Origin: a phage
Sequence record: OR896157.1
Length of the DNA stretch: 64,000 nucleotides
Direction: 5' to 3' (one strand)
Notes under the pieces: model-generated
What the model was told of the DNA's origin: nothing
Database searches by the model: none
The model's input: only the letters and a program-made list of their open reading frames with translations
Position numbers and translations under genes: made by a program
Shown: piece by piece, positions 1 through 61,173 of the stretch
How positions within the stretch are numbered: position 1 is the first letter of the stretch
How the letters are laid out: every line of letters begins with the position of its first letter

Positions 1-141
1 TTCTTCTTTAGAAGGTTCTTTGAACTTGCTATATACTACCATAGCGCCATCAGCGTATTGTTCAAAGTTTGCTTCTTCTGCCGATACGGGCGAGATTAAA
101 GTGGCTGCAAATAAAATCGCAGCCAATGCACGTAGAGTCAT
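1..141 (-). CDS. hypothetical secreted protein, 5' part only (gene runs off window start)
   Basis: ATG at 139-141 (minus); open to position 1; N-terminus MTLRALAAILFAATLISPVSA looks like a signal peptide. Confidence 0.3.
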   Translation of the reverse strand, partial: MTLRALAAILFAATLISPVSAEEANFEQYADGAMVVYSKFKEPSKEE

Positions 142-148
142 AAAAGCC

Positions 149-361
149 TCAGCGTTGTCCTGTATTAAGTTTGTGCTGAAGAACAGCCTTAACTTTATCG
201 AGGTATTTTTGCAGCTGGCGTTTACGCAAATAGTCTGGGCGTGCACCATGCTGGCGAAACTCTTCGTTTAGACTTGAGATAGCGTGGCCAATCTCGCACT
301 TAATTTCTTCCAGTTGAGATACACCAAGATTACGAAGTTGCTTATCGTTCAAATGCTTCAT
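149..361 (-). CDS. hypothetical protein
   Basis: 70-aa ORF in minus-strand early gene string. Confidence 0.4.
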   Translation of the reverse strand: MKHLNDKQLRNLGVSQLEEIKCEIGHAISSLNEEFRQHGARPDYLRKRQLQKYLDKVKAVLQHKLNTGQR

Positions 362-395
362 ACATACCTCATTAGTTAGTAATAGTATTTATAAA

Positions 396-411
396 GGGGA
401 GCATGCTCCCC
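396..411 (-). terminator. stem-loop ggggagcatgctcccc followed by T-run on minus strand
   Basis: perfect 16-nt palindrome immediately downstream of ORF 421..792. Confidence 0.45.
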
Positions 412-420
412 AATTTAACT

Positions 421-792
421 TTAGTCCCACAAAATTTGGCACAGACCTTTCTCATACTTACGAGCAGCCTTTTCGTCCCAATTATAGTCCGTATCGTTTC
501 TCAACGAGCGTTTGATTTCCATCTTGTGAAATACACGAGGAATCGGTGAAGCATAGCGCATCCAGCGCAGAGTCTTCCAGAATGAATCACGATGGCGCTT
601 TTTCATCATAGAAGCAAGCTCTAACGGTCTTTCCATGTTTTCTTTAATTTGCTTATCGATATATTCATTACGCCAAAGAGAAGTTCTCTCGTAGTCATAA
701 TCTTTGATATAAGCAAATGGGTTGTTCTTCTGGTCGTGCCATTTAGAAGAAGTGGTTACGTGCCAGCCTTTACGACGAATAGTTCTTGACAT
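421..792 (-). CDS. hypothetical protein
   Basis: 123-aa ORF, basic, no recognised motif. Confidence 0.5.
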   Translation of the reverse strand: MSRTIRRKGWHVTTSSKWHDQKNNPFAYIKDYDYERTSLWRNEYIDKQIKENMERPLELASMMKKRHRDSFWKTLRWMRYASPIPRVFHKMEIKRSLRNDTDYNWDEKAARKYEKGLCQILWD

Positions 793-848
793 ATCTACCT
801 CTTGAGTTAAAGTACCTCAATGGTAGTAAAATCCTGCTTTAAAATATT

Positions 849-959
849 TCATGGTGATACTTTCCCTTCAATTAAAATCTTTAAGAATCCAAGTAAAGCT
901 GCTATGATAAACCCAGCAGCTGGAAAAGCGAATAACCAAAATAATACATCAATAATCAT
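849..959 (-). CDS. small hydrophobic peptide (putative membrane protein)
   Basis: hand-translated MIIDVLFWLFAFPAAGFIIAALLGFLKILIEGKVSP; ATG overlaps upstream stop (ATGA); below ORF-track size cutoff. Confidence 0.25.
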   Translation of the reverse strand: MIIDVLFWLFAFPAAGFIIAALLGFLKILIEGKVSP

Positions 960-1087
960 CCTAATGTTACCTTGCATTTGCATTTTGGACATTCAACTTC
1001 TTTTACGCGAAGACGCTTTGTCTTCGAGCGCGGCGCTGTATCATGGTCATAAACATGAAGACATCGATAGCAAATGACTAATTTCAT
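956..1087 (-). CDS. small zinc-ribbon-like protein
   Basis: hand-translated MKLVICYRCLHVYDHDTAPRSKTKRLRVKEVECPKCKCKVTLG; CxxC..CxxC spacing. Confidence 0.3.
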   Translation of the reverse strand: MKLVICYRCLHVYDHDTAPRSKTKRLRVKEVECPKCKCKVTLG

Positions 1088-1114
1088 CAGTAGATAGCCT
1101 CGAAGATTTTTACA

Positions 1115-1699
1115 CTATTCATAAATACCAGTCATTTCACACCAATGTTTTCGACAGAGTGAGACGTATTTGTCTTCACCACCTAATTCAATAGTATCAC
1201 CTTCTACGATAGCATTTCCTTCTTGGTCAACACGAGCAACCATTGTTGCTTTACGACCACAATGGCAAACACCCTTCAGTTCGCAGAGTTTATCTGCAGT
1301 TGCCAGAAGAGCGGCAGAGCCCTTAAATAGGTTACCACGGAAATCTGTACGAAGTCCATAGGCCATCACTGGAGTATTATAGAGGTCAACAATTTGACAT
1401 AATTGAAGAACGTGAGACTGGGTCAAGAATTGAGCTTCGTCAACAAACACACAGTGAATATCTTTTTGAGTCTGCGCCCATTTGAAAAACTCAAGAATGT
1501 CCATGTCTTCAGTGATGGTATTTGCTTCAGCATGTAGACCAACACGAGATACAACTTCATTTGCTGAATCTCGCGTGTCAATAGCTGGCTTAAGAATGAG
1601 CGTTCCCATTCCACGCTCTTTATAGTTATGAGCTGCTGTAAGCAGAGATGCTGATTTACCAGCATTCATTGAAGCATAGTTAAAATAAAGCTGAGCCAT
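1115..1699 (-). CDS. tk: thymidine kinase
   Basis: P-loop MNAGKSASLL, C-terminal CxCGxxA...RxxWC zinc motif typical of TK; start taken at MAQLYF (ATG overlapping upstream stop, TAATG). Confidence 0.85.
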   Translation of the reverse strand: MAQLYFNYASMNAGKSASLLTAAHNYKERGMGTLILKPAIDTRDSANEVVSRVGLHAEANTITEDMDILEFFKWAQTQKDIHCVFVDEAQFLTQSHVLQLCQIVDLYNTPVMAYGLRTDFRGNLFKGSAALLATADKLCELKGVCHCGRKATMVARVDQEGNAIVEGDTIELGGEDKYVSLCRKHWCEMTGIYE

Positions 1700-2154
1700 T
1701 ATTCGCCGTCCCAATCAACTACAATAATATCAACATTTGGAGTGAACATATTAATTAATGCTTCAATCTTTTCCCAATCGCCACCAGCAATGCCGGCGCC
1801 AATGCGAGGAATATAAACATCCATTTTGAACAAAGAACCAGATAAGAATTTGTCCATTTTCTGAAAAGCATTAATTAATGCGCCATAATCAAGATTAGGA
1901 CCTGGTTCGTATTGAGTGTAAAGATTAAAGCAAGCACCACCATTTAATGCTAACGCTAAGCTAAAAGTTCCAAGCTTTTTATGGTCAGCATAATCTGTAG
2001 CTGCTTTGTCAGTTGACAAAATAACCGGAAATTTTGAAGCAAGTTGTCCTGCTACGCCAGCACCCATAGTATGGAAACAGTTACAACCATGAGCAATAAC
2101 TTTGCCTTCAGAATATAGCTTAACAATATCGCCTTTAATGTAATTTACAATCAT
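1699..2154 (-). CDS. macro-domain protein (putative ADP-ribose binding/hydrolase)
   Basis: GDIVK...IAHGCNC...GAGVAGQL and IPRIGAGIAGGDWE resemble macro-domain glycine-rich loops. Confidence 0.5.
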   Translation of the reverse strand: MIVNYIKGDIVKLYSEGKVIAHGCNCFHTMGAGVAGQLASKFPVILSTDKAATDYADHKKLGTFSLALALNGGACFNLYTQYEPGPNLDYGALINAFQKMDKFLSGSLFKMDVYIPRIGAGIAGGDWEKIEALINMFTPNVDIIVVDWDGE

Positions 2155-2570
2155 CTTTTCCTCAACTCAGGTATGCTTTTAAATTGATAAGTAGCGTAGT
2201 TTTCAAATTCATCGTAAACTCGTGCATAAATTTCTTCGCCACATGTTAACTTTTTGAAAGACTTCAAATCTCTTTCAGAAAAATCTATCGATACTCCGTT
2301 GATGATTCCGGAGGATTTGGCTCCGCAACCTCGAAAATGAATTGAACCACCCGGAATAATAGCTTGGTCTTCTTTGTTAGAGTAATTGTAAAATGATACA
2401 CCAAAAGCTTTCTTTTTAGGATAGTAAGAAACTTCAATATTCTTTTTAAACGAACCAGTTGTTTCAACTAGCTTACCATCAATAGCGTAGATATTATCAG
2501 GATAGCCTGGGAGTTTTTCCCAGGCATTTACCGATAATGGTAGAGCTAGCAGAAATGCTGCTATTTTCAC
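2151..2570 (-). CDS. hypothetical secreted protein
   Basis: N-terminal signal peptide MKIAAFLLALPLSVNA. Confidence 0.45.
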   Translation of the reverse strand: MKIAAFLLALPLSVNAWEKLPGYPDNIYAIDGKLVETTGSFKKNIEVSYYPKKKAFGVSFYNYSNKEDQAIIPGGSIHFRGCGAKSSGIINGVSIDFSERDLKSFKKLTCGEEIYARVYDEFENYATYQFKSIPELRKR

Positions 2571-2893
2571 TTAGATAATCCCGCTATATACACCCTCAAT
2601 AACGTATCACGATATTCTTCGCATACGTTTACATCAGGTGCATTATCACACAACGACTCAAGGTCTTTAGCCTTACGAGCCACCAAGGTAGACCATTTAA
2701 AGCGGCTACCAGAATCAGTTTGTCCTTCAGCATAAGTTTTGTCAAAGTCAAATGACAAAATGTTCAAACACTCTGTATTAGTCTTAGTGCAGAATTGCTT
2801 TGCTAATACTAAAGAATCATCTTGTTCAGTAGCAAAATCAACTTTACACCCAGATAGAGCAAAAACTATTAGAAGTACAAACAACTTTTTCAT
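2567..2893 (-). CDS. putative lipoprotein
   Basis: signal peptide with lipobox LSGC. Confidence 0.45.
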   Translation of the reverse strand: MKKLFVLLIVFALSGCKVDFATEQDDSLVLAKQFCTKTNTECLNILSFDFDKTYAEGQTDSGSRFKWSTLVARKAKDLESLCDNAPDVNVCEEYRDTLLRVYIAGLSK

Positions 2894-3441
2894 TATTCCA
2901 CCGTATAATGAAGTATTTTACGAGATTTCAAGTAATTCGCCTTTGCTAATACTTCAGAGGCGTACTTGTTGCCGGCTTTCCACTTGTTTCCTGCGTTGTA
3001 TGATGCTATGGCTTTTCTCATATCACCGTTATGACGGTCTAACCAATAACTTAACTCAATATACGCCCAAGCGGCGGAGTGCTTCCGGCTCTTTGCCATG
3101 CGGATGATTTCAGCGTCTGTCATTGACCATCCGGCTTGTTTAACTCTTTCCCTAAGTGTAGGAAGATAATTTTGAAATATCCCGTAAGCTTGATGCCCAT
3201 GTTTACCAGTTGTACGTAAGCCTGCAGAACTTTCCTGCCAGACTAGTGCAGCCATAATGTAACCAAGTCCATCATTGTCATAGCGCTTACTATGGTCTTT
3301 ATACTTCCCATTCTTCTGAAATTGTTCACCAAACGAATATGCGTATTGCAAATTGTCGAGTTGGACATTACTGAAGGTGTGTTCGGACGCGAATCCTAGA
3401 GACGAAACTAGGAGTAACGCCGCGCATAGAGCTTTTTTCAT
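2893..3441 (-). CDS. putative lytic transglycosylase (SLT-like), secreted
   Basis: signal peptide; WQESS...AYGIFQ resembles SLT catalytic ES..GLMQ motif. Confidence 0.45.
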   Translation of the reverse strand: MKKALCAALLLVSSLGFASEHTFSNVQLDNLQYAYSFGEQFQKNGKYKDHSKRYDNDGLGYIMAALVWQESSAGLRTTGKHGHQAYGIFQNYLPTLRERVKQAGWSMTDAEIIRMAKSRKHSAAWAYIELSYWLDRHNGDMRKAIASYNAGNKWKAGNKYASEVLAKANYLKSRKILHYTVE

Positions 3442-3459
3442 GTTTACCTCAAATTAAAG

Positions 3460-3924
3460 CTATAACTTGATAATCTTTGTGCTGATTTTACCTTTCAAGC
3501 GTTTATCATTTACGAATGCCATGCGACATTGCATGGAGTGACCGCGGAACGGATGTTCTGGGTTTGGTAGAGAGACAGTCATTCCAAGCCATAGAGTACC
3601 ATCTGTGATTTCCAGACGTTGAGGTCTGTACTCTACTTCTGGGTCAATTTCCGATGGGTCAATTGGAAGCATCGGCATTTCTAAGAACTCGTGAATTTCT
3701 GTTACATGGTTGTGTACTTTGTGGAACAGAGCGAACACATACTCTTCATCAATTTCTCGCTGGATAGCACGGTCCAGGAGGTGATTAGAATATTTAATAA
3801 AGAAAGCTGGAATACCAGCAGATGCGCAAGCACTACGTATAGAATCGTTTACACTCTTGAATTCAGTCTCAAAGCGGCGACGTAGCTTGTTTCGGCGGAT
3901 GAATACTTCTGGGTTAGTTGTCAT
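3460..3924 (-). CDS. regB: RegB-like endoribonuclease (tentative)
   Basis: about 154 aa, N-terminus MTTNPEVFIRRNKLRR; position between tk and e matches T4 order; start moved to ATG 3922-3924 behind AGGAG RBS. Confidence 0.45.
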   Translation of the reverse strand: MTTNPEVFIRRNKLRRRFETEFKSVNDSIRSACASAGIPAFFIKYSNHLLDRAIQREIDEEYVFALFHKVHNHVTEIHEFLEMPMLPIDPSEIDPEVEYRPQRLEITDGTLWLGMTVSLPNPEHPFRGHSMQCRMAFVNDKRLKGKISTKIIKL

Positions 3925-3980
3925 TTTCAATCTCCTTTGTTGATAGGGCTATAGTATCATAGCCCTTGGAGAAAGTAAAT
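3921..3980 (-). promoter_or_regulatory. conserved ~60-bp cassette, copy A (hairpin agggctat...atagccct plus AGGAG RBS)
   Basis: near-identical to 21113..21180; sits immediately upstream of regB-like ATG. Confidence 0.5.
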
Positions 3981-3982
3981 AG

Positions 3983-4255
3983 TCAGTAGTTATGGTCATC
4001 GTAGAACACTTGAAGCAGAACATTGCTACGCAGCTTCTTGGTGTCCGCGATGCGTTGACGGAGCTTTGAGATTTTGTCCTGAACAGCATTGAAAGCATCA
4101 GAAGTCTTAGGGTCATGAAGACCCATAGACTCATCCACAAGCTGCTCCATCTTTTCTTCCATAGCATTGATAGCTTCGGAGAAAGACTCGGAGACTTTGT
4201 TGCGGATAGACATTAATACTTTTCTTCTGGTTGAAATACTGAACGGCATGCCCAC
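3983..4255 (-). CDS. hypothetical protein
   Basis: 90-aa ORF; true start may be internal. Confidence 0.4.
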   Translation of the reverse strand: MGMPFSISTRRKVLMSIRNKVSESFSEAINAMEEKMEQLVDESMGLHDPKTSDAFNAVQDKISKLRQRIADTKKLRSNVLLQVFYDDHNY

Positions 4256-4494
4256 ATAGAAGCTTCTTTCAAACGATCAATTGCATTACGAATCTGAGTG
4301 ATTCTAGAATGAGCTAGATCGAATTCTTCGTCGCTTATAGTGTCAACATCCAAGTCCATGTAAACTTTGACATGCTCTTCTTCTAAGGCTTTGAAAATCA
4401 AGCCAAGACGTAATTCAGCATCTTTGATAGCGTTCACTTTACCAATTTTGTCATCAGTGTGTGGTTTATAGCCTTTGATATCTTCAATTGACAT
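4213..4494 (-). CDS. hypothetical protein
   Basis: 93-aa ORF, acidic. Confidence 0.45.
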   Translation of the reverse strand: MSIEDIKGYKPHTDDKIGKVNAIKDAELRLGLIFKALEEEHVKVYMDLDVDTISDEEFDLAHSRITQIRNAIDRLKEASMWACRSVFQPEEKY

Positions 4495-4856
4495 TACATT
4501 TCCTTAGTGAAAGTGCGTGAAATAACGTCGCGCTGTTGCTCTGGAGTTAGAGCATTAAAACGAACGGCATAGCCAGAAACACGAATAGTCAGCTGAGGAT
4601 ATTTTTCTGGATGTTGAACTGCATCTTCTAAAGTTTCTTTAGACAGCACGTTCACGTTCAAATGCTGTCCACCTTCAACTTTAACTGTAGGCTTGGTTTC
4701 AATTCCAATTTCACGAGATTCAAAACCAAAGAAAGTTTCTACATCAACTATAGAATCTTCTGGCAAAGTTTTAGATACAATCACACGGGCTTTATCACCA
4801 TCTTCAAGATAAATTGTGCCTTTATGAGTGCCGTTCAAAATTTGATATGCGTTCAT
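4494..4856 (-). CDS. hypothetical protein
   Basis: 120-aa ORF, stop/start overlap with neighbour. Confidence 0.5.
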
Positions 4857-4865
4857 AGTAGTTCC

Positions 4866-5102
4866 TTATGGGTATTGAATTTCTTCGTCAGTCTCTTTAT
4901 CATACTCACGAATTTTGATTGGTTCATTAATTCCGTAGCCACTTACAGTAAGACCAGTTTTAGCGTCTTCCCACTGTTTGGTTTCTTCATTCCACACACC
5001 GTTAGCATGCGCTTCCATTAAATCCTGTTCGCCTTGGTTTGAAAACCAGCCGCAGAAAGATTCAACCAGGTGGTCGGGGATGTCGATAATAATTTGCGCC
5101 AT
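4866..5102 (-). CDS. hypothetical protein
   Basis: 78-aa ORF. Confidence 0.4.
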   Translation of the reverse strand: MAQIIIDIPDHLVESFCGWFSNQGEQDLMEAHANGVWNEETKQWEDAKTGLTVSGYGINEPIKIREYDKETDEEIQYP

Positions 5103-5395
5103 GTTGGCTCCAAAGAAATGACCTTGCGGTCGTAAGTAATTAAGCTTGAAGTTTTAATGCCTTTGCATGGGCCAGAGATAAACTCTACTTCAAACCATGG
5201 ATGCTCATTCATCAGACCCACATCTGGCGAAGTGCAGAGGAACAACGAGCCTTTAAAAGGCCCATCTAAAAATCGATACAGCTTTGGCTCAAGAACTGCC
5301 CCATCTGAAAATTTGATATGCAGAATATTAATCAAAGATTCTACATTACATTTTCCAGTAGAACGCAAAAAGCGGATATATTCACCTGTAGTCAT
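5018..5395 (-). CDS. hypothetical protein
   Basis: ORF 5018..5437 trimmed to internal Met because a GGGCC-UUCG-GGCCC hairpin lies at 5401-5414. Confidence 0.35.
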   Translation of the reverse strand: MTTGEYIRFLRSTGKCNVESLINILHIKFSDGAVLEPKLYRFLDGPFKGSLFLCTSPDVGLMNEHPWFEVEFISGPCKGIKTSSLITYDRKVISLEPTWRKLLSTSPTTWLNLSAAGFQTKANRI

Positions 5396-5400
5396 TCTAA

Positions 5401-5414
5401 GGGCCCGAAGGCCC
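5401..5414 (-). other. C(UUCG)G stem-loop gggccuucgggccc
   Basis: 14-nt perfect hairpin just downstream of ORF 5434..6024. Confidence 0.5.
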
Positions 5415-5433
5415 TTATTAAAATTTTCTTTCA

Positions 5434-6024
5434 TCATTGCATTCCTATCACAAAGAATAATGGAATCATCTCTTCACCAGTAACGTGTGATTGATGAACA
5501 CATGCATAAAATGGACCTTTGAAATGGGCTTCATAGAACTTTTCCATTTCAGGGAGTTTCATTGGTTCTTCTATAATATACAAGATTCTGTTAAGCTTTC
5601 GACCGCGGGCCTTTGAACCACCATCGCTCAGAAAACTTCGCACAGTGTCCATGATAATCATGCGTTTGGCTTCATCTGGATTTGCTTGATGAATGAGTTC
5701 TTTCTCATAACAAGCTCTTATTAGTTTTGCGGTTTCTTCTGAATTTCGTTGATGAGTGCTAATAATCCATACAGTTCCGCCATCATGTAACCAATCTGCT
5801 GCAAATTCGGCAACAGCTTTAGTCTTGCCTGATTGACGTCCGCCATCGATTTTTAGCGTAGCATATTCGCGTAGAATATCTATAGGAGTGTAATGACTTT
5901 CTTTGAGGATTTCTATACAATCATCAGCACGGATTTTGAAGGCGTGCATCAGGGATAGATATGGGGCAAATAGAGATTTTATTTTCATTTTGTTTACCGT
6001 TAGTGAGGGCCTTCCATGGCTCAA
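5434..6024 (-). CDS. P-loop NTPase-like protein
   Basis: Walker A GGRQSGKT; alternative start at MKIKSL (5988). Confidence 0.45.
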   Translation of the reverse strand: MSHGRPSLTVNKMKIKSLFAPYLSLMHAFKIRADDCIEILKESHYTPIDILREYATLKIDGGRQSGKTKAVAEFAADWLHDGGTVWIISTHQRNSEETAKLIRACYEKELIHQANPDEAKRMIIMDTVRSFLSDGGSKARGRKLNRILYIIEEPMKLPEMEKFYEAHFKGPFYACVHQSHVTGEEMIPLFFVIGMQ

Positions 6025-6176
6025 GAATTTCCATCAGCTAGCGGGATTGCTAGGACCCTGATTGTAACTGGCTTTACCGCACTTGGGCTCGACCTTTTCA
6101 CAGGTACCAGAAGCTACTTCACTCAGAGGACACGACGTTCATGAGGAGAGGTCCAGGTTGGCTTTTTGATTGAAGA

Positions 6177-6473
6177 TTAACTAAACGGGTCGTGAAGCTT
6201 ATTACCAATACGACGGAACACTTTAGCTGCAAATTTATTGGAAGGGTTATCAACCATAATTTTGCGCATGTGACCGGTCGCGACTGTTCGAGCAGCCTTA
6301 TAACCAGCAATGTTATCTTTCAAAGTAATTCGACCTTTTCCTTTAGGGTCGTCAATGGTCACTTTGTAAGTTCCCATATCTTCGCCAGGCTTAATTTCTT
6401 CAATCCAGATATAACCACCTGGAACTCGCTTTTGTTCAGCTGCTTCATTTAAAAATTCATTATAGGTTTTCAT
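6177..6473 (-). CDS. internal head protein (IPII/IPIII-like)
   Basis: [11 protein letters not shown] capsid-targeting leader as in T4 internal proteins; start taken at this Met. Confidence 0.55.
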
Positions 6474-6954
6474 ATGCTTTCCATGTTCCAACTCGGAATG
6501 TTTCAATTACTCGTTTAGCACGATTTGGTGTCTGACGATACCACTTGGAATTAGCAAGCTCTTTTGCAGCCGCTTCCCATTGTTTTGATTTAAGCAGACG
6601 CATTGATGCTGGGAAACCAGCTACACCTGTTACGCCCATCTGAAACACCATATTAATAAGTGCAGCACGACGAACTCCATCAAGTACATCATATACTGGT
6701 TTTAATACAGCATTTCCGAGAATCCCTCGAGTTGCTTTATCGACGTCTTTCGCAAAAATAGCTTCTGCTTCAGCTTTTGTGATTTGACCATTACATGGAC
6801 GCCCCACAAGCTTATCAAGTTCTCGTTTAGCAGCATCAAGAGAAGGGTCACGTGTCAAAAGGTGACCGATACCGATTGTCCAAAAACCTTCAGTATCTTT
6901 ATAGATTTTAGAATCGTATCCTTCATCGATACGAAGCATGCCAAAAATGTCCAT
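6460..6954 (-). CDS. e: endolysin (T4-type lysozyme)
   Basis: 164 aa, very close to T4 lysozyme along full length (LRIDEG...YKDTEG...TIGIGHLL...NRAKRVI). Confidence 0.92.
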
Positions 6955-6987
6955 GAGGACCTCCTATCAGTTGATAGGAGTATTTAT

Positions 6988-7467
6988 TTAGCATTCCCAA
7001 AGAGCGTCTTGAATGACCTTTGGATAAAGTTTCTGCATAACAGAGAAAAGACTTGGGCCCATTACTACATTCCACATACGCGGCTGAATCAAAGCAAACG
7101 CATCGATTTCCGGAAATTCGTTTCCATCTTCGTCCGTATGATATGCCGTGCAAATACAATCTCTGAATTGAGAGTGTTCCACTGGGAACGGATATTCAAA
7201 GATATGTATATCTTTATTGCTAGCATAATCATGTCGGCCTAGGTCCACTAGATGTCCTGGATTATAATCAACGAATCCACTTTCTTCTCTGCATTCACGA
7301 ACTGCAGCTTCAAGAGGAGATTCACCTGGCTCGATATGACCCTTTGGAATGTCCCAGCGAGATGGTCCACCACCTAGTCCAGAATTAGTTACTCGACCCA
7401 TGAACAGTTCTTTGTCTTTTGTAAAGAACAGAATACCAGCAGAGACTTCTTTAATTTTCTTACTCAA
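6988..7467 (-). CDS. nudE: Nudix hydrolase
   Basis: Nudix box GHIEPGESPLEAAVRECREESG; position next to e. Confidence 0.75.
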   Translation of the reverse strand: MSKKIKEVSAGILFFTKDKELFMGRVTNSGLGGGPSRWDIPKGHIEPGESPLEAAVRECREESGFVDYNPGHLVDLGRHDYASNKDIHIFEYPFPVEHSQFRDCICTAYHTDEDGNEFPEIDAFALIQPRMWNVVMGPSLFSVMQKLYPKVIQDALWEC

Positions 7468-7694
7468 ATTTCACCCCAACTAATTTCACGAAGTCTTTGC
7501 ATGATTGACTCAACTTCTTCAATCATATCTTCATCGCAGTCAAATGAACCTTCTACCATCCAATCACTAATTGGAGTGAACATTTCAAGGTCCGTAGATA
7601 GACGATTACGAATATCATCTACTGATTCATTGTCGTTGAAGGAGTACAGGTAAGAATCAGCCGATTCAGATTTAACAAATACCGCAATACTCAT
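7464..7694 (-). CDS. hypothetical protein
   Basis: 76-aa acidic ORF. Confidence 0.45.
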   Translation of the reverse strand: MSIAVFVKSESADSYLYSFNDNESVDDIRNRLSTDLEMFTPISDWMVEGSFDCDEDMIEEVESIMQRLREISWGEI

Positions 7695-8002
7695 ACCTTT
7701 TCCTCTAAGAAGTCAGACAGTTTAAAATCTTTACGGTCCATCAGACCATAGTGAATGTTCTTCAGCGTATCGTACATGTCCCAGTACTTTTCTTTTAGCA
7801 TATTACCAAATGGTGGAATATAAAGCTTATCCCATTTAGCAGCTAACTCACCATTGCGCAGTTCTCCTGGAACATTTTCAACGATACGTAAAACTTTAGT
7901 TGCAACCTCATAATCGGATGGCGGAATCCATCCCCAATTATGATGTACTGAACCGTTAATTTCGCCATTCAGCGAAGTAAAAATCGTAGCTGGACAACTC
8001 AT
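7691..8002 (-). CDS. hypothetical protein
   Basis: 103-aa ORF. Confidence 0.45.
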   Translation of the reverse strand: MSCPATIFTSLNGEINGSVHHNWGWIPPSDYEVATKVLRIVENVPGELRNGELAAKWDKLYIPPFGNMLKEKYWDMYDTLKNIHYGLMDRKDFKLSDFLEEKV

Positions 8003-8361
8003 CGTGTACCTCTAATACCTTGAATAAAGTTTAAAGCATCTTCACCTGGTGGAACTTCTTTAGACTTAGATTTTCGTTTAAAGAGTTTCCACTCTTTCTT
8101 TTGGTCGAAGGTTCCACGTTGAACCTGCCCAAGATAAAATAACCACTTTCCAATCCAGTAGAATGGAGTTAAAATGCCAGCCATCCAGCCAACAAAAAGT
8201 AATTGTTCACCATACAAAGGACTAAAGAAGTACAATCCCCAATATGTTCCAAACCCATAAAGCATTGTGAACATAAAGCAAATAATTATTGTACAAACAG
8301 CCCATCCAAAATTATCATATGAACCAGCATCTTTGAATCCGCGAAATAATGTTTTAATCAT
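7999..8361 (-). CDS. hypothetical membrane protein
   Basis: two or more hydrophobic helices. Confidence 0.45.
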   Translation of the reverse strand: MIKTLFRGFKDAGSYDNFGWAVCTIIICFMFTMLYGFGTYWGLYFFSPLYGEQLLFVGWMAGILTPFYWIGKWLFYLGQVQRGTFDQKKEWKLFKRKSKSKEVPPGEDALNFIQGIRGTR

Positions 8362-8717
8362 CGTTTAATCCTGCATCTGGAGATAAAGTTCTCTAAATTT
8401 TGTTTGTCGTCGTAAATGGCCTTGGCTTTAGTAAACAATTTAACATGAATTTTACAATAACACCACTTAATAAAAGAAGCAACAACAATGACAACGAATA
8501 GTGAACATAATGCGCTTAGTGGTACAGAGATAATCATTTCAGCTACAAATCCATTGAACCACCAAACTACGAAATTTGATATGAAGACAGTAAGTATAAT
8601 AATTGCCCAACAAACGTCGTCTTCGTATTTCGACTTGAATCTATCTTCAATTTCTCGTTCAAAATGTCTGATATTCATTTTAGGATTGTATTTCATTTTT
8701 ACCTCGACATTCCGCAA
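8358..8717 (-). CDS. hypothetical membrane protein
   Basis: hydrophobic segments. Confidence 0.45.
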   Translation of the reverse strand: MRNVEVKMKYNPKMNIRHFEREIEDRFKSKYEDDVCWAIIILTVFISNFVVWWFNGFVAEMIISVPLSALCSLFVVIVVASFIKWCYCKIHVKLFTKAKAIYDDKQNLENFISRCRIKR

Positions 8718-9036
8718 TGAATTCTTCTGATTCTCGGATTATTCTATTACGAAGAACTTTAGCATTCTGTTCAGCTAAACGTTTATTTTCTGGTCGCATT
8801 ACCCACCAGATTGCAATATCATGAGTTTTAGGATGAGCCCAAATCATAAATGGAAGCGAAAGAAAAGTTGTAGTTGCAAACCAAATTGGAGCATATGGGT
8901 CTTCTAACAACAGTGACGGAATAAAAACGAAAAGTGACACAAATGTGCATAAAATTAAAACTGCCATTAAGTGCCAAAAGTCTACTTTAGCTTCAAATTC
9001 TCTTAATTTTAATTCAATCTTTGGCTGATATCCCAC
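8680..9036 (-). CDS. hypothetical membrane protein
   Basis: hydrophobic segments. Confidence 0.45.
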   Translation of the reverse strand: MGYQPKIELKLREFEAKVDFWHLMAVLILCTFVSLFVFIPSLLLEDPYAPIWFATTTFLSLPFMIWAHPKTHDIAIWWVMRPENKRLAEQNAKVLRNRIIRESEEFIAECRGKNEIQS

Positions 9037-9038
9037 GG

Positions 9039-16405: not shown

Positions 16406-16902
16406 CAGATACTTACCACAGTAATAGCTTCAGGAGCTTTAGGAATAACGATATCTTCTTCAATGTAGAAGAGCTTAAATGTTTCAGCTACACGCATAAA
16501 GTCAATATCATAACCGACTGGAGTTCCAATCAATTCTTGAATCTTATCCATCACTTTATACTGAACTTGATAGAAATCTTCAAGACGAGCATCGAATTCA
16601 TCTTCAGTATAATCACCTTCTGGGATTACAAAGCCAAGCACTTCTGAACAGAACTCTGGAGTGATTTCTTCATTTTCAACACAGTATTCAAAGAAAGCAT
16701 CACCGGAATAATCTTCATTACCCATTCCATTAGGGTCTGAATTATCAGATGCAAAACATTTAGCAACGGCACACCAACCTGAAACGTGTCTAGCATTTAC
16801 AGCATAAATCACATTCTCTTGATAATCATCGCCATCGTTTTCCCATGATACACATGATACTGCATAACCTTTAGGGATAGTTTGACCAAAGCGGAGTTCC
16901 AT
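16405..16902 (-). CDS. hypothetical strongly acidic protein
   Basis: 165 aa, about 23 percent Asp+Glu. Confidence 0.45.
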   Translation of the reverse strand: MELRFGQTIPKGYAVSCVSWENDGDDYQENVIYAVNARHVSGWCAVAKCFASDNSDPNGMGNEDYSGDAFFEYCVENEEITPEFCSEVLGFVIPEGDYTEDEFDARLEDFYQVQYKVMDKIQELIGTPVGYDIDFMRVAETFKLFYIEEDIVIPKAPEAITVVSI

Positions 16903-16912
16903 AATATTTCCT

Positions 16913-17287
16913 TCAATTAAATGGTGGAAGAGATTTCTTATATAAATCTATCATCATTCGCCATTTAGCAATTACTTTAGAATACGGAGATTTATGAGAG
17001 AATTGCGAAATGTCAGAATAATCAAGTTCAGGCAGTGGAGTTAAATGACCCATCAGCTCACGAGGAAATTGATGAAAACAATTCATCAAATCTTTGTAAA
17101 CATAATCAAGTAAGTCTTTAACATCAAAGAATTGGGTATTTAGTCCTTCTTTGGAATAACGATATTTCAAAAATTTCCAATGACCGGACTTAGAATCTTG
17201 AGTAAACGCGTAATCACTATGAAGCATGATATCGCGAACAAAATCTTCAGAAAAGAAGATGGAGTGAGTGCAACCATAATAAATCAT
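16913..17287 (-). CDS. hypothetical protein
   Basis: ORF 16913..17335 trimmed to MIYYGC because its 5' extension overlaps a tRNA. Confidence 0.4.
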   Translation of the reverse strand: MIYYGCTHSIFFSEDFVRDIMLHSDYAFTQDSKSGHWKFLKYRYSKEGLNTQFFDVKDLLDYVYKDLMNCFHQFPRELMGHLTPLPELDYSDISQFSHKSPYSKVIAKWRMMIDLYKKSLPPFN

Positions 17288-17305
17288 AATATTTTCCTCA
17301 GAATT

Positions 17306-17382
17306 TGGTGACCCCAGCAGGACTCGAACCTGCAACCTAGCGATTATGAGTCGCGTGCTCTAACCAATTGAGCTATAGGGCC
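17306..17382 (-). tRNA. tRNA-Ile2-like (CAU)
   Basis: anticodon loop cuCAUaa; body very similar to E. coli tRNA-Ile(LAU) as recalled. Confidence 0.55.
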
Positions 17383-17409
17383 AAAGTCCTCCTAAGAGGA
17401 CCGAGGGTA

Positions 17410-17634
17410 TTATTCAACCATGAAATCTGCTACTTCATCAAAGTCGTTATTGATGACAACAGTAAATGGCAGAGCTTCATCACTTGTTTTGATAGTCAGC
17501 TTAACAAAACCATCAACAGTTTCAACCAAACCAACGATTTTATCTGAACGCACTACAGCACGAGCTACGTCAACAATTTTACCAGTCATTGCAAATGTAG
17601 CGATTTGGTTAACTTCAACAACGATACGTTTCAT
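17410..17634 (-). CDS. hypothetical protein
   Basis: 74-aa ORF. Confidence 0.4.
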   Translation of the reverse strand: MKRIVVEVNQIATFAMTGKIVDVARAVVRSDKIVGLVETVDGFVKLTIKTSDEALPFTVVINNDFDEVADFMVE

Positions 17635-17695
17635 TCTTTTTCCTTAGTGGTTTTGATAAGGTAATTATATACTGAATTTTTAAAGCGTTTTCACT

Positions 17696-17730
17696 AAAAA
17701 GCCCCGTAACAGATTTCTCTGCTCGGGGCG
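17696..17730 (-). terminator. terminator-like hairpin plus U-run after tRNA sub-cluster
   Basis: gccccg...cggggc stem followed by uuuuu on minus strand. Confidence 0.4.
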
Positions 17731-17735
17731 TCATT

Positions 17736-17810
17736 TGGTGGGAAGTGTTGGAATCGAACCAACCTCTCATGCTCTTCAGGCACGCGCTAATCCATCTCAG
17801 CTAACTTCCC
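17736..17810 (-). tRNA. tRNA-Phe(GAA)
   Basis: anticodon stem cgugc/gcaug, loop cuGAAga. Confidence 0.6.
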
Positions 17811-17813
17811 GAT

Positions 17814-17890
17814 TGGTCGGTGCGGCAGGATTTGAACCTGCGACCCCTTGGTCCCAAACCAAGTGCTCTACCAAACTGAGCTACACACCG
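17814..17890 (-). tRNA. tRNA-Pro(UGG)
   Basis: anticodon stem cuugg/ccaag, loop uuUGGga. Confidence 0.65.
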
Positions 17891-17896
17891 TTAATT

Positions 17897-17971
17897 TGGA
17901 GCATCCAGAGAGAATCGAACTCTCATCTACTGGGTGGAAGCCAGTCATAATAGCCGCTATACGATGGATGC
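17897..17971 (-). tRNA. tRNA-Gly(UCC)
   Basis: anticodon loop cuUCCac. Confidence 0.6.
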
Positions 17972-17976
17972 AATTT

Positions 17977-18070
17977 GTACGGAACGCCTGGATTCGAACC
18001 AGGTTAAATTGCGATTGACGTCACAATTTATCTTATGAAGGCCATGCCTCTACCATATCCGAACGTTCCG
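17977..18070 (-). tRNA. tRNA-like element, anticodon unresolved (possible pseudo-tRNA)
   Basis: good acceptor cggaacg/cguuccg and T-arm ccugg-UUCGAAU-ccagg, but no clean anticodon stem; contains uuCAUaa and an 8-bp extra hairpin. Confidence 0.35.
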
Positions 18071-18121
18071 TCAAAAACGCTACTCGGCTTACGGCTTAGG
18101 CAATTCCTCGAACCGATAATT

Positions 18122-18195
18122 TGGCAGGCCCCGTAGGAATCGAACCCACGTCACTGAGGTTGGAGCTCAGGATAATACCACTATACGAGAGACCT
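18122..18195 (-). tRNA. tRNA-Trp(CCA)
   Basis: anticodon stem cugag/cucag, loop cuCCAac. Confidence 0.6.
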
Positions 18196-18199
18196 AAAA

Positions 18200-18293
18200 T
18201 GGAGGAAGCGGTGGGATTCGAACCCACGGACCGTATCACTACGGCCTCCGCATTTCAAGTGCGGTGCAATTAACCAGACTCTGCCACGCTTCC
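18200..18293 (-). tRNA. tRNA-Ser(UGA), class II
   Basis: 94 nt, anticodon stem ccgca/ugcgg, loop cuUGAaa, long variable arm. Confidence 0.65.
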
Positions 18294-18297
18294 GAAT

Positions 18298-18373
18298 TGG
18301 GGTGACCGATGGGAGTTGAACCCATGACTACGAGAATCACAATCTCGAGTTCTACCAACTGAACTACGGCCAC
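18298..18373 (-). tRNA. tRNA-His(GUG)
   Basis: anticodon stem cgaga/ucucg, loop uuGUGau. Confidence 0.6.
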
Positions 18374-18587
18374 ATCAATATTCACTCCAGCAATCATGAT
18401 GCCTTCACACGAAATTGAGAGAAGAGTGATCAGTTCAACCCTTGTAGACGCGTCAAGTAAATATTGATGTGACAGCTTATTTAAGAAGAGTGAGAGTCCC
18501 AGTCTTGTACGGAGTAACCATTTATGCATTGGCAGCTATCGCGCGGTTCGCACTTCCGATAAATGGACTTACCGTTACACTCTAATT

Positions 18588-18662
18588 TGGCTGGACTATC
18601 TGGATTCGAACCAGAGATACCGGAGTCAAAGGCCGGTGACTTAACCGCTTGTCTATAGTCCA
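18588..18662 (-). tRNA. tRNA-Gln(UUG)
   Basis: anticodon loop cuUUGac, one C-U mismatch at base of anticodon stem. Confidence 0.55.
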
Positions 18663-18668
18663 ATTGTT

Positions 18669-18743
18669 TGGAGGCGGGTGATGGACTCGAACCATCGCGT
18701 AACGGGATATGAACCCGTCATTCTACCAACTGAAGTTAACCCG
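18669..18743 (-). tRNA. initiator-like tRNA-Met(CAU)
   Basis: loop uuCAUau, GGG/CCC at bottom of anticodon stem, unpaired 1:72. Confidence 0.5.
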
Positions 18744-18898
18744 CATCTATCCGGATTCTTGAAGTACTAACAAGTAGCTTGATGTAGAACACGCTAAAGA
18801 TATAATCTTACGAATATAGAGCTTATTCCGTGGGAACAAACAGCTTCGTCCTCGGCATTATCTTACAGGACTCTGACTTATCTTCAAGAACTGCCTCG

Positions 18899-19363
18899 TT
18901 ATTTTATGAACTTATTTATGAATCGTCTAGCTTGAGTATGACTGACTCCAAGTTCATTTGCAAATTTTACTAATGCACCACGTTTTGTGAAATCAATAGA
19001 ATTATATAAATCTATTCTTAAAGCAATTTCATCTGCAGTGAATTTATGAGCATGATTTTCTGATATTTTTATTTTTGTTTCATCAGAATGATTATGTCCA
19101 GTAAAACCAGTAGATACGATTCTTCCATTTGCGCCAGCGTCTTTAGCATTTTGCGCATTAGTTGCGCAATAAATGTTATCCAAAGAATATGGTCCAACAT
19201 CTCCTTTACGACACATACAATAATTATCTGAGGCTCTACCGCGCAAATGATATTTGCCAGTAGCTTTCCACCATGATAGCCATTCATCAAATGTCAGTTT
19301 AAATTCAATACCTCTTGATTTAGCATGCACTTTTTGCATGCGATACTTTTCATAATCTTTCAT
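18899..19363 (-). CDS. homing endonuclease-like protein
   Basis: GHNHSDETKIKIS (NUMOD3-like) and C-terminal helix-turn-helix ELGVSHTQARRFINK; embedded in tRNA cluster. Confidence 0.5.
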   Translation of the reverse strand: MKDYEKYRMQKVHAKSRGIEFKLTFDEWLSWWKATGKYHLRGRASDNYCMCRKGDVGPYSLDNIYCATNAQNAKDAGANGRIVSTGFTGHNHSDETKIKISENHAHKFTADEIALRIDLYNSIDFTKRGALVKFANELGVSHTQARRFINKFIK

Positions 19364-19377
19364 ATTACTCTCATATT

Positions 19378-19454
19378 TGGCAGTGCTGACGGGTTTCGAA
19401 CCCGCGATCTCTCCCGTGACAGGGGAGTGTCTTGACCATCTCGACTACAGCACT
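19378..19454 (-). tRNA. tRNA-Asp(GUC)
   Basis: anticodon stem cuccc/gggag, loop cuGUCac. Confidence 0.6.
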
Positions 19455-19699
19455 ATAAATTTACTTTCGTGAGTATGGGATTACCCTCAAGCCTTCCGGA
19501 AAGCTGAATAGGCGTTATTGGCTCTCATATACCCGTGCACAGATATAATCTTCATTAACGCAATAACTTCATCAATATACTCCGAAAGTAAACTTTCGGC
19601 GCCGTATTTAATTTTGACTGTGTAGTTATCGTTGAGGGAACTCACAGACAGGGATTAAAGTGCCGACGACTTATCAGAACGTCTTCTGACTTCTACATT

Positions 19700-19784
19700 T
19701 GGCGGGCCGTGCAGGTATCGAACCTGCCTAGTCATTTCTGACACGGATTAACAGTCCGTCGCTTACCCTCTCAGCCAACGACCC
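19700..19784 (-). tRNA. tRNA with GUU anticodon (Asn) but class-II architecture
   Basis: anticodon arm acgga-cuGUUaa-uccgu, discriminator G, 3-bp D-stem, 15-nt variable arm guca-gaaa-ugac. Confidence 0.5.
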
Positions 19785-19789
19785 AAATT

Positions 19790-19864
19790 TGGTTCTCCGT
19801 AAGAGAATTGAACTCTTCTTTCCGACGTGAAAGGCCGGCGTCCTAACCGATAGACGAACGGAGA
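19790..19864 (-). tRNA. tRNA-Glu(UUC)
   Basis: anticodon loop cuUUCac. Confidence 0.55.
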
Positions 19865-19865
19865 T

Positions 19866-19943
19866 TGGTAGGACGTGAGGGAGTTGAACCCATCGACATT
19901 CCGATTAAAAGTCGGATGCTCTAACCAACTGAGCTAACGTCCT
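19866..19943 (-). tRNA. tRNA-Lys(UUU)
   Basis: anticodon stem uccga/ucgga, loop cuUUUaa. Confidence 0.6.
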
Positions 19944-19981
19944 GTAGATATTTATAATAACAAAAATATCTTTAAGCAAAT

Positions 19982-20057
19982 TGGTGGGAATAACTGGGCT
20001 CGAACCAGTGACCTAACGATTATCGGTCGTTTGCTCTACCAACTGAGCTATATTCCC
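19982..20057 (-). tRNA. tRNA-Ile(GAU)
   Basis: anticodon stem aacga/ucguu, loop ccGAUaa. Confidence 0.55.
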
Positions 20058-20956: not shown

Positions 20957-21122
20957 TTGCAATTTTATCCATAACGAATGAAATGATACCAGCAACGAGT
21001 GTAAGTACTACGCTACTGATGAGTTCAGAATTTGAAAGGAACGGCCATCCGAAGATTGAAGTTCCAAGTGCTCCCAGGGTTACTACAGTAAAGATGTTTC
21101 CGATGATTTCGCAACGTTTCAT
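20943..21122 (-). CDS. small hydrophobic peptide
   Basis: hand-translated MKRCEIIGNIFTVVTLGALGTSIFGWPFLSNSELISSVVLTLVAGIISFVMDKIANEPN; ATG behind AGGAG RBS of cassette copy B. Confidence 0.3.
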   Translation of the reverse strand: MKRCEIIGNIFTVVTLGALGTSIFGWPFLSNSELISSVVLTLVAGIISFVMDKIANEPN

Positions 21123-21180
21123 TTTTAATCTCCTTGTGTTGATAGGGCTATAGTATCATAGCCCTCAAGGAAAGTAAACG
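21113..21180 (-). promoter_or_regulatory. conserved ~60-bp cassette, copy B (hairpin plus RBS)
   Basis: near-identical to 3921..3980. Confidence 0.5.
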
Positions 21181-59670: not shown

Positions 59671-61173
59671 ATGCACGATATCAATGTAAAATTTCATGAT
59701 TTTAGTCATGTGTTTATTGAGTGTGATGAATCCACATTCCATGAACTAAGAGACTATTTTAGTTTTGAAGCTGATGGCTACAAATTCAATCCAAAGTATC
59801 GTTATGGACATTGGGATGGACGTATTCGTCTTCTGAACTATGACCGTCTGTTACCGTTCGGCCTAGTCGGACAAATCCGTAAATTCGCAAATAGCATGGG
59901 TTATTCAGTTTACTTCGAACCGAAGATTTTTGAGACTGAAGAAATAACTCGCAAAGATTTTGATGACTGGCTTGGTAATCTCAATATTTACTCTGGGAGT
60001 AAAAAGATTGAGCCTCACTGGTATCAGAAAGATGCTGTGTTTGAAGGGTTAGTGAATCGTCGTCGAATTTTGAACCTTCCAACATCTGCTGGTAAATCTT
60101 TAATCCAATGCTTACTTGCGCGTTATTATGTTGAGAACTATGAAGGTAAAATTTTAATCATCGTTCCAACAACAGCATTAGTTGACCAGATGATTAATGA
60201 CTTCTGTGATTATCGTCTGTTTGGCAAACAACATTGTCTTGGTATTCGCTCAGGTACAAAGCGCGATTCAGATGCAATGATTTATGTTGCCACCTGGCAG
60301 ACAGCCGTTAAACAACCAAAAGAATGGTTTCACCAATTCGGCATGATGATGAATGACGAATGTCATCTGGCTACTGGCAAATCTATTTCAACTATCGTTG
60401 CTGGTTTAAATAATTGCATGTTTAAGTTCGGCTTGTCTGGTTCATTAAAAGACGGCAAAGCTAACGTGATGCAGTATGTTGGAATGTTCGGTGAAATTTT
60501 CCGTCCAGTTTCAACATCTCAGCTCATGGAAGATGGTCAAGTAACTGACTTAAAAATTAACTCAATCTTCCTTCGTTACCCAGACGAATTCACCACTAAA
60601 ATGAAAGGTAAAACTTACCAAGAAGAAATCAAGGTAATTACCAGCGCAAAACGTCGTAACAAATGGGTAGCTAATTTAGCTGTAAAACTGGCCAAAAGAA
60701 ATGAAAACGCGTTCTTGATGTTCAAACATGTTGCTCATGGTAAAGAGCTGTTTGAAATGATTAAAGAACTTGGACATGAGAAGGTGTATTACGTTTCAGG
60801 CGAAGTATCAACTGAAGTTCGTAACGCATTGAAGGTAATGGCTGAAAACGGTACGGGGATTATTGTAGTTGCATCTTACGGTGTATTCTCTACTGGTATT
60901 TCCGTTAAGAATCTTCACCATGTTATTTTAGCTCATCCAGTTAAGTCTAAAATTATCGTTCTGCAGACTATCGGTCGTGTACTTCGTAAGCATGATTCTA
61001 AATCAATTGCTACAGTATGGGATATCATCGATGATATGGGTGTTAAACCAAAATCAGCAAATGCCAAGAAGAAATACGTTCATTTGAACTATGCTTTAAA
61101 GCACGCGCTGGAGCGCATTCAGAGATATGCAGACGAAAAATTCAATTACGTAATGAAACAAATCGATATTTGA
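59671..61173 (+). CDS. uvsW: UvsW helicase
   Basis: start at MHDINVKFHDF; near-identical blocks to T4 UvsW (RRILNLPTSAGKS, MMNDECH, TIGRVLR). Confidence 0.95.
   Translation: MHDINVKFHDFSHVFIECDESTFHELRDYFSFEADGYKFNPKYRYGHWDGRIRLLNYDRLLPFGLVGQIRKFANSMGYSVYFEPKIFETEEITRKDFDDWLGNLNIYSGSKKIEPHWYQKDAVFEGLVNRRRILNLPTSAGKSLIQCLLARYYVENYEGKILIIVPTTALVDQMINDFCDYRLFGKQHCLGIRSGTKRDSDAMIYVATWQTAVKQPKEWFHQFGMMMNDECHLATGKSISTIVAGLNNCMFKFGLSGSLKDGKANVMQYVGMFGEIFRPVSTSQLMEDGQVTDLKINSIFLRYPDEFTTKMKGKTYQEEIKVITSAKRRNKWVANLAVKLAKRNENAFLMFKHVAHGKELFEMIKELGHEKVYYVSGEVSTEVRNALKVMAENGTGIIVVASYGVFSTGISVKNLHHVILAHPVKSKIIVLQTIGRVLRKHDSKSIATVWDIIDDMGVKPKSANAKKKYVHLNYALKHALERIQRYADEKFNYVMKQIDI

Follow-up and report, generated by a model that had tools for sequence, protein, structure and literature searches.

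Two cassettes of about 60 bp, lying 17 kb apart as direct repeats on the same strand of a 64,000-nucleotide stretch of phage DNA (sequence record OR896157.1; this whole stretch is “the window” below), are, taken as a whole, best explained as T4-type early promoters of the promoter-early stem-loop (PeSL) kind, each combined with a hairpin and a Shine-Dalgarno (SD) sequence; we put the probability of this reading at roughly 70%. The first (copy A) stands before regB and the second (copy B) before a tRNA.4-like gene. At 97–99.8% identity, the window matches Enterobacter phages that belong to Karamvirus (CC31, PG7, and many recent isolates), a genus of CC31/PG7-like, T4-type myoviruses. PeSL cassettes are a known element class of T4-like phages (Arbiol et al. 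2010, PMC2839356; Comeau et al. 2014, PMC4122927), of which the Karamvirus cassettes are a further case; our literature searches returned no paper on Karamvirus early promoters or on these cassettes in Karamvirus. Judged from how its arms vary among relatives, the palindrome that the two copies share is a selected stem around the -10 element.

Candidate early promoters before regB and tRNA.4

An initial annotation of the window had picked out by eye near-identical stretches at 3921-3980 and 21113-21180, each with a 22-nt palindrome and an SD, and had named a shorter or weaker pairwise alignment as what would speak against them. The stretches are present as described: from the -35 hexamer to the ATG, 53 of 59 aligned columns are identical, a similarity neither shorter nor weaker than it had appeared, and the differences comprise four spacer substitutions, one indel, and one leader substitution. 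The palindrome, AGGGCTAT-GATACT-ATAGCCCT, is exact in both copies and has no other occurrence in the window when up to three mismatches are allowed (0 matches in 100 shuffles); a GGAG lies ahead of each ATG, and the downstream genes, RegB and a hydrophobic open reading frame (ORF), are those the annotation had claimed (Table 1). Because the genes here all lie on the minus strand in the ORF listing, the cassettes are read as reverse complements. Copy A then has the layout TTTACT-TTCTCCAAGGGCTATGA-TACTAT-AGCCCT-ATCAACAAA-GGAG-ATTGAAA-ATG and copy B TTTACT-TTCCTTGAGGGCTATGA-TACTAT-AGCCCT-ATCAACACAA-GGAG-ATTAAAA-ATG. The left arm of the palindrome (approximately -24 to -17) falls in the promoter spacer, and the right arm (-8 to -1) is formed by the end of the -10 element and the discriminator. 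Each cassette fills its intergenic gap, with the upstream stop codon 3 nt (A) or 9 nt (B) ahead of the -35 hexamer at its 5′ end and the SD and ATG of the next gene at its 3′ end, as in PeSL elements.

Both copies fit exactly the T4/PST early-promoter consensus found in PeSL elements, TTTACW-N17-TAYWAT (PMC2839356, PMC4122927), which has four matches in the window against 0.41 expected. T4 early promoters have been characterized as having a UP/-35/TGn/-10 architecture, and the two copies share with them the -35 hexamer, the spacer length, and a TG at -15/-14 that forms a TGn extended -10. Where an A/T-rich UP element would lie, copy B has AATAAAATAGTTTTAG; copy A is preceded there by the last part of a coding sequence (CDS), which is not markedly A/T-rich. 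In T4, regB is preceded directly by a typical early promoter (Uzan & Miller 2010, PMC3014915), and among the promoters compared here T4 regB alone is known to be transcribed by unmodified host RNA polymerase right after infection. The T4 sequence at the orthologous position reads GTTTAC-N17-TGgTATAAT. The fit to the consensus and to TGn, the filled gap between stop codon and SD/ATG, and the T4 counterpart together bear out the annotation's suggestion of a shared promoter. From these patterns we infer promoter activity with start sites near 3944 and 21143. The sigma-70 spacing rule places the start of transcription about 7 nt past the -10 hexamer. A possible antisense promoter on the plus strand was also considered and rejected: TATAGT at 3950-3955 has no acceptable -35 at 16–18 nt, and a generic scan of that strand also returned nothing.

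Table 1. Positions of the cassette elements and neighboring genes in the window.
Feature	Position	Strand	Sequence or basis
Copy A, full cassette	3979->3922	minus	TTTACTTTCTCCAAGGGCTATGATACTATAGCCCTATCAACAAAGGAGATTGAAAATG
Copy A -35 hexamer TTTACT (GTTTAC class, T4-type)	3974..3979	minus	fits TTTACW of T4/PST early consensus
Copy A extended -10, TGaTACTAT (hexamer 3951-3956, 17 nt from -35)	3951..3959	minus	sequence pattern
Copy A 22-nt palindrome, stem of 8-9 bp around -10	3945..3966	minus	exact match; 0 expected
Copy A predicted transcription start, A 7 nt past -10	3944	minus	inferred, sigma-70 spacing rule
Copy A SD GGAG, candidate RegB site; pairs with TCTCC (3967-3971) in read-through RNA	3932..3935	minus	predicted fold
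Copy B, full cassette	21178->21120	minus	TTTACTTTCCTTGAGGGCTATGATACTATAGCCCTATCAACACAAGGAGATTAAAAATG
Copy B -35 hexamer TTTACT, preceded by G	21173..21178	minus	sequence pattern
Copy B extended -10, TGaTACTAT (hexamer 21150-21155, spacer 17 nt)	21150..21158	minus	sequence pattern
Copy B palindrome around -10, identical to that of copy A	21144..21165	minus	exact match
Copy B SD GGAG, candidate RegB site	21130..21133	minus	sequence and predicted fold
Copy B outer stem, CAAGGAGA pairing with TTTCCTTG in read-through RNA	21129-21136 with 21166-21173	minus	predicted fold
regB CDS, 154 aa (ATG 3922-3924)	3463..3924	minus	Pfam PF10715, E=9e-70
tRNA.4-like hydrophobic ORF, 59 aa	20946..21122	minus	CC31 annotation: tRNA.4 / predicted membrane protein
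Cluster of 19 tRNA genes with small ORFs between, downstream of copy B	14804..20057	minus	

By their sequence, the cassettes qualify both as PeSL elements and as T4-type early promoters. They share with PeSL elements the intergenic module of about 60 bp with early promoter, stem-loop, SD, and ATG, repeated within a genome; the position of the stem-loop over the -10 element, one of the two commonest described for PeSL; the match to the T4/PST promoter consensus; and perhaps also a location at the edge of variable loci with signs of recombination, copy B bordering an internal-protein (IP) locus. They differ in their arms, GGGCTAT/ATAGCCC here as against the G-run/C-run stems of RB49 and phi1, and from the PST stems, which are of the form AGNA/TCNT and lie upstream of the promoter. 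In addition, the cassettes here have no U-tract, and the two copies are 17 kb apart instead of flanking a single ORFan.

Arm variation around the -10 element

We scanned IMG/VR with a pattern in which TTTACW, TGATACTAT, and ATCAA were fixed and the arms left free, and obtained 91 matches in T4-like contigs. Among 51 distinct noncoding promoters, 26 show Watson-Crick complementarity at five or more of six positions when the free spacer segment (14 nt) is set against the free discriminator (6 nt), compared with about 4% under null models using shuffled spacers or mismatched partners. The matched pairs differ widely in sequence: GGGCTAT/ATAGCCC, GGGTTAT/ATAACCC, GGTCTAT/ATAGACC, GGGTA/TACCC, GGAGCT/AGCTCC, GAGGTA/TACCTC, and GGATG/CATCC all occur in this set. 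The cassettes before tRNA.4 and frd.1 carry four or five different matched pairs in various lineages. Furthermore, 10 of 26 candidate early promoters in the PG7 genome form a duplex between spacer and downstream sequence at p<=0.013 relative to shuffled spacers, with a Fisher combined p of 3e-10.

The regB promoter allows the same comparison at an orthologous site. Its arms are GGGCTAT/ATAGCCC in Karamvirus and GGGCCAT/ATGGCCC in Jiaodavirus, a double compensatory change. In other lineages the layout of the regB promoter is unchanged and the arms are unrelated: GTGTAGGAGTA/TACTTCTACAC in one group of ~170-kb contigs, with the SD outside the stem; CTCCTGTAG/CTACAGGAG in Dhakavirus and TCTCCTCTTTAT/ATAAAGAGGAGA in a Gelderlandvirus-like contig, both stems including the SD; and TTTTCCTCTTGACTG/CAGTTAAGAGGAGAA in T4 (NC_000866 62741-62800, minus strand), a 15-bp stem with two G-U pairs whose right arm is the SD. 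The T4 case thus agrees with copy A in gene, position, the early promoter directly upstream, and the inverted repeat around the -10 element, but its arms are unrelated, and its stem holds the SD directly, whereas copy A has a 9-bp inner stem and a weak outer one. Such variants make the cassettes a clean case of compensatory evolution for a stem around the -10 element, and they make the role of the PeSL stem-loop testable as terminator, translational mask, or RegB shield.

A possible role of the hairpin and competing explanations

As RNA, the 22-nt palindrome is predicted to form a 9-bp stem of -13 kcal/mol (z -3.5). Read-through transcripts, which contain the whole cassette, are predicted to fold at -19.6 (A) and -21.6 kcal/mol (B), with z of -4.6 and -5.8; the minimum-energy fold consists of this inner stem and an outer stem, TCTCC/GGAGA in A and TTTCCTTG/CAAGGAGA in B, and leaves the SD paired. 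The cassettes' own transcripts, taken from the predicted start, are essentially unstructured in the same predictions (-2.8 and -2.1 kcal/mol, z above 0). SD pairing is also predicted at regB of T4, Dhakavirus, Jiaodavirus, and Gelderlandvirus-like phages, with the T4 regB promoter folding at -22.4 kcal/mol (z -4.8) as read-through RNA. An Rfam search of both regions (E<=10) returned only chance-level hits (E>=1) and matched no curated family.

The GGAG of each copy is in addition a candidate RegB site. A strong RegB/S1 site is an unpaired GGAG followed by RAYARAA, RNA structure shields GGAG from RegB, and the GGAG SD of regB itself is cleaved by RegB in T4-related phages (PMC3014915). Compared with the strong-site consensus GGAGRAYARAA, GGAGATTGAAA in copy A matches at five of the seven positions after GGAG and GGAGATTAAAA in copy B at six; both are candidate sites read from sequence. 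Tested precedents for masking are T4 e, soc, 49, and I-TevI, in each of which an SD-masking hairpin has a promoter within its 5′ arm. The likeness is in the placing of the promoter, inside the 5′ arm or past it, with long transcripts masked and promoter-proximal ones open (a prediction in our case). The internal promoters there are late promoters (TATAAATA) that delay expression, whereas here the promoter is early, so the cassettes resemble that group in mechanism, not in membership, and expression would be restricted to the earliest minutes.

The role we favor for the hairpin, on the strength of these modeled folds, is that it would separate masked read-through RNA from open promoter-proximal RNA. 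Host sigma-70 RNA polymerase would fire at the cassette promoter immediately after infection and produce an unstructured leader of about 20 nt, starting at about the A after AGCCCT and followed by the GGAG SD and the ATG. Since the start site lies between the arms, this transcript would lack the hairpin, and its SD would be open to ribosomes and to RegB. Transcripts from upstream genes would carry the whole structure and would be poorly translated and shielded from RegB; the stem may additionally slow or attenuate read-through transcription. Copy A would act in this way on regB and copy B on tRNA.4 and the tRNA cluster, with further copies standing before cef and frd.1. The translational control that the annotation had offered as one option is thus plausible: the SD is paired in the predicted read-through fold, and the cassette's own transcript is predicted to be unstructured.

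A broader form of this proposal is possible, and we hold it only tentatively: hairpins straddling the start site would be a general device at about 40% of T4-type early promoters, with one arm in the spacer and the other in the discriminator or SD, kept by compensation, so that early genes could be translated and cleaved by RegB only on transcripts from their own promoters and read-through RNA would be silent. If so, early-protein synthesis would stop once the early promoters are shut off, with no termination needed, a role unlike the terminator role given to PeSL stem-loops. Our literature searches for SD masking by early-promoter hairpins returned nothing. What the comparisons suggest beyond the literature consulted is the systematic presence of compensated arms on both sides of the start site, and a translational and RegB-shielding role rather than termination.

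Several observations weigh against parts of this picture. A generic sigma-70 scan flags neither copy, and 8 of 12 positions of TTGACA/TATAAT are matched; both are missed because T4 early promoters deviate from that consensus, and the scan is therefore uninformative against a promoter. Column-wise covariation is modest: the count across 17 TTTACT-type promoters is 76.5% paired compared with 72.7% after shuffling, and 17 of 500 shuffles reach that level. Part of the reason is that the left arm does not keep one register from family to family, and a register-free permutation test and a duplex-energy test were used in place of the column-wise count. As for SD masking, the SD lies outside the most stable part of the hairpin, and the outer stems have only 5–8 bp across an internal loop of 7–10 nt. 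The family-wide excess of complementarity between spacer and SD is weak (mean longest run 4.7 vs. 4.1; runs of six or more in 27% vs. 10%), and many of the sequences are related, which confounds it; for these reasons we keep masking as a proposal and not as a result. Finally, 4 of the 10 PG7 promoters with significant stems pair with the discriminator only, so masking cannot account for everything.

The role proposed by the PeSL authors, in which the hairpin mainly terminates or attenuates upstream transcripts and so isolates each cassette-headed gene, we regard as unlikely for these copies. One RB49 PeSL stem-loop cut lacZ expression about as much as rrnB T1 did (PMC2839356, PMC4122927), and the hairpins here are stable and stand directly past the upstream stop codon. 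The sequence after them is, however, not that of an intrinsic (Rho-independent) terminator: the bases past the hairpin are AUCAAC (minus strand) and UUGGAGA (plus strand), copy A is not among the terminators listed in a scan of positions 1-20000, and the lack of a U-tract makes a terminator role doubtful. Moreover, the regB arms of T4, Dhakavirus, and the Gelderlandvirus-like phage are separated by 17–23 nt, and their right arm holds the SD, a layout that is not a terminator's. Nor does it appear at all probable that the inverted repeat acts solely as DNA, in which form (cruciform or single-strand hairpin) it would be a hotspot of recombination or a target of nucleases (endonuclease VII, gp46/47) and would be kept because it favors cassette shuffling. 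Recombination of PeSL elements and their mini-circles are on record (PMC2839356, PMC4122927), T4 deletion end-points are cited in the literature at GGGC...GCCC inverted repeats, to which the GGGC.../...GCCC arms here correspond, and a chimeric cassette described below is joined at the conserved core. However, the palindrome forms only a weak DNA hairpin (-6.9 kcal/mol; 8-bp arms around a 6-nt center), making cruciform extrusion unlikely; homology alone accounts for recombination in T4-type phages, and a DNA-level role gives no account of the constant order of the arms, the left one upstream of the start site and the right one downstream.

Two further accounts founder on the compensated arms. 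The annotation had allowed for an operator. At such a DNA site a dimeric phage or host protein would repress or activate a subset of early promoters, for instance in early shut-off. A perfect 8+8 palindrome does overlap the -10 element, it is identical before cef, regB, tRNA.4, and frd.1, and the mechanism of early-promoter shut-off is incompletely understood according to the literature (PMC3014915). However, no half-site is conserved: from lineage to lineage and from promoter to promoter the arms change in compensation around an invariant central TGATACTAT, their register varies, and the loop ranges from 4 to 23 nt. Compensating arms around a fixed center therefore indicate a nucleic-acid stem and not a protein operator, and we give the operator very little credence. 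The annotation's interpretation was otherwise essentially right, although it missed the minus-strand reading, the overlap of the palindrome with the -10 element, and the membership in a known element class with copies outside the window. That the palindrome has no function, its symmetry being an accident of one recently duplicated promoter, would fit the near identity of the copies within a genome but is scarcely credible given compensatory variants at orthologous sites in other genera and complementarity far above both null models.

Further copies, probable exchange between them, and genomic setting

The palindrome has no further copy in the window. Whole-genome analysis of PG7 revealed that cef, too, has a full copy before it, the third, and that a related one precedes frd.1; a weak, partial match lies before another small ORF. 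The PG7 genome thus carries full copies before cef, regB, and tRNA.4 in addition to the related frd.1 copy, the repetition of a motif that characterizes PeSL elements, and BLAST places the cassette at three to five sites in each Karamvirus genome. The cef copy equals copy B over 43 nt, from -35 to +5, and its leader differs beyond; the shared unit is therefore the promoter, to which copies A and B add a common leader. For the annotation of Karamvirus, phages of which are under development for Enterobacter therapy, the cassettes mark the predicted early promoters of regB, the tRNA operon, cef, and frd.1. The full copies in the PG7 record lie at 8842-8884 (cef), 60758-60833 (regB), and 78515-78583 (tRNA operon). 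All three of these targets are RNA-related (cef is a modifier of suppressor tRNAs and regB an mRNA endonuclease), which may reflect coincidence or co-regulation.

The copies within a lineage resemble one another. All four Karamvirus cassettes (cef, regB, tRNA.4, and frd.1) have the arms GGGCTAT/ATAGCCC, and GGGTTAT/ATAACCC is the pair in every one of the cassettes that precede tRNA.4, frd.1, and two further genes in two Gelderlandvirus-like contigs. Similarly, the leader GGAGATT is found at both regB and tRNA.4 in Karamvirus only, the Jiaodavirus and Moonvirus orthologues both having GGAGAAT. Rearranged cassettes also occur: IMGVR_UViG_2706796299_000001 contains, upstream of an IP gene, a chimeric cassette in which the left arm GGGCTAT and the noncomplementary right arm TACCTC are joined at the conserved core, and a second cassette with a tandem duplication of GATACTATTACCTCATCAA. 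From their sequences, the chimeric and duplicated cassettes appear to be traces of recombination or slippage within the conserved promoter core. Lineage-specific arms, a shared leader motif, and rearranged cassettes together point to exchange between copies, as far as sequence comparison can indicate, and with the published PeSL work they give indirect support to the annotation's suggestion that the pair could mediate recombination. Recombination or gene conversion would keep the copies alike, and the cassettes would serve as movable stretches of homology bordering variable loci, for example the IP locus beside copy B.

That locus provides the closest parallel to earlier work. Repeats of about 70 bp at the IP loci of T-even phages, each with a T4 early promoter and an overlapping inverted repeat, were reportedly described by Repoila et al. 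in 1994 and thought to mediate the shuffling of IP genes; these repeats foreshadowed the PeSL architecture. Copy B, which lies directly downstream of ip7 at the border of the IP locus, conforms to this pattern, and in relatives the cassette follows different IP genes, but copy A (regB) and the cef and frd.1 copies lie outside IP loci. In Citrobacter phage Merlin, an identical promoter (from the -35 hexamer through the first transcript bases) follows a different, Ip8-like IP gene, and relatives have arrays of IP genes, each with such a cassette. The cassettes are likely joints for swapping IP and other accessory genes. At copy A, we found no indel among the window, PG7, and CC31.

The surrounding gene order is that of T4 (...tk, vs, vs.1, regB, vs.4-8, denV, e ... 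tRNA genes, tRNA.4, ip7, 57B, 57A, 1, 3...). Since the 19 tRNA genes follow copy B on one strand, copy B heads a unit that includes the tRNA cluster, with tRNA.4 first. CC31 has only 8 tRNAs in the region matching the window's 19, and the tRNA locus is therefore variable within the genus.

Other promoters of the same type were also seen. Another early-type promoter in the window, TTTACA-N17-TGgTATTAT at 13123-13189 (minus strand), has the architecture of copies A and B with different arms; its spacer TGATGAGGTAG pairs with TACCTCATCA just past the -10 element (-17.9 kcal/mol, p=0.003 vs. shuffled spacers). In PG7, the early-type promoters from 141459 and 133512 (minus strand) have perfect 13-bp and 11-bp complementarity between spacer and SD region, TCTCCATTTGGTT/AACCAAATGGAGA and CTCCGTTGTAT/ATACAACGGAG, respectively, which are the clearest examples of SD masking in that genome. 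Two database records that contain the cassette are unusual. The 172-kb genome of Aeromonas phage PS49 (PP212877.1; host Aeromonas hydrophila) has a cassette 100% identical to the Karamvirus one, an odd host label for the genus. The record of Enterobacter phage SonariX (PQ898399.1), with five cassette matches, is 248,734 bp long compared with ~172 kb in other Karamvirus genomes and may be a concatenated or partly duplicated assembly.

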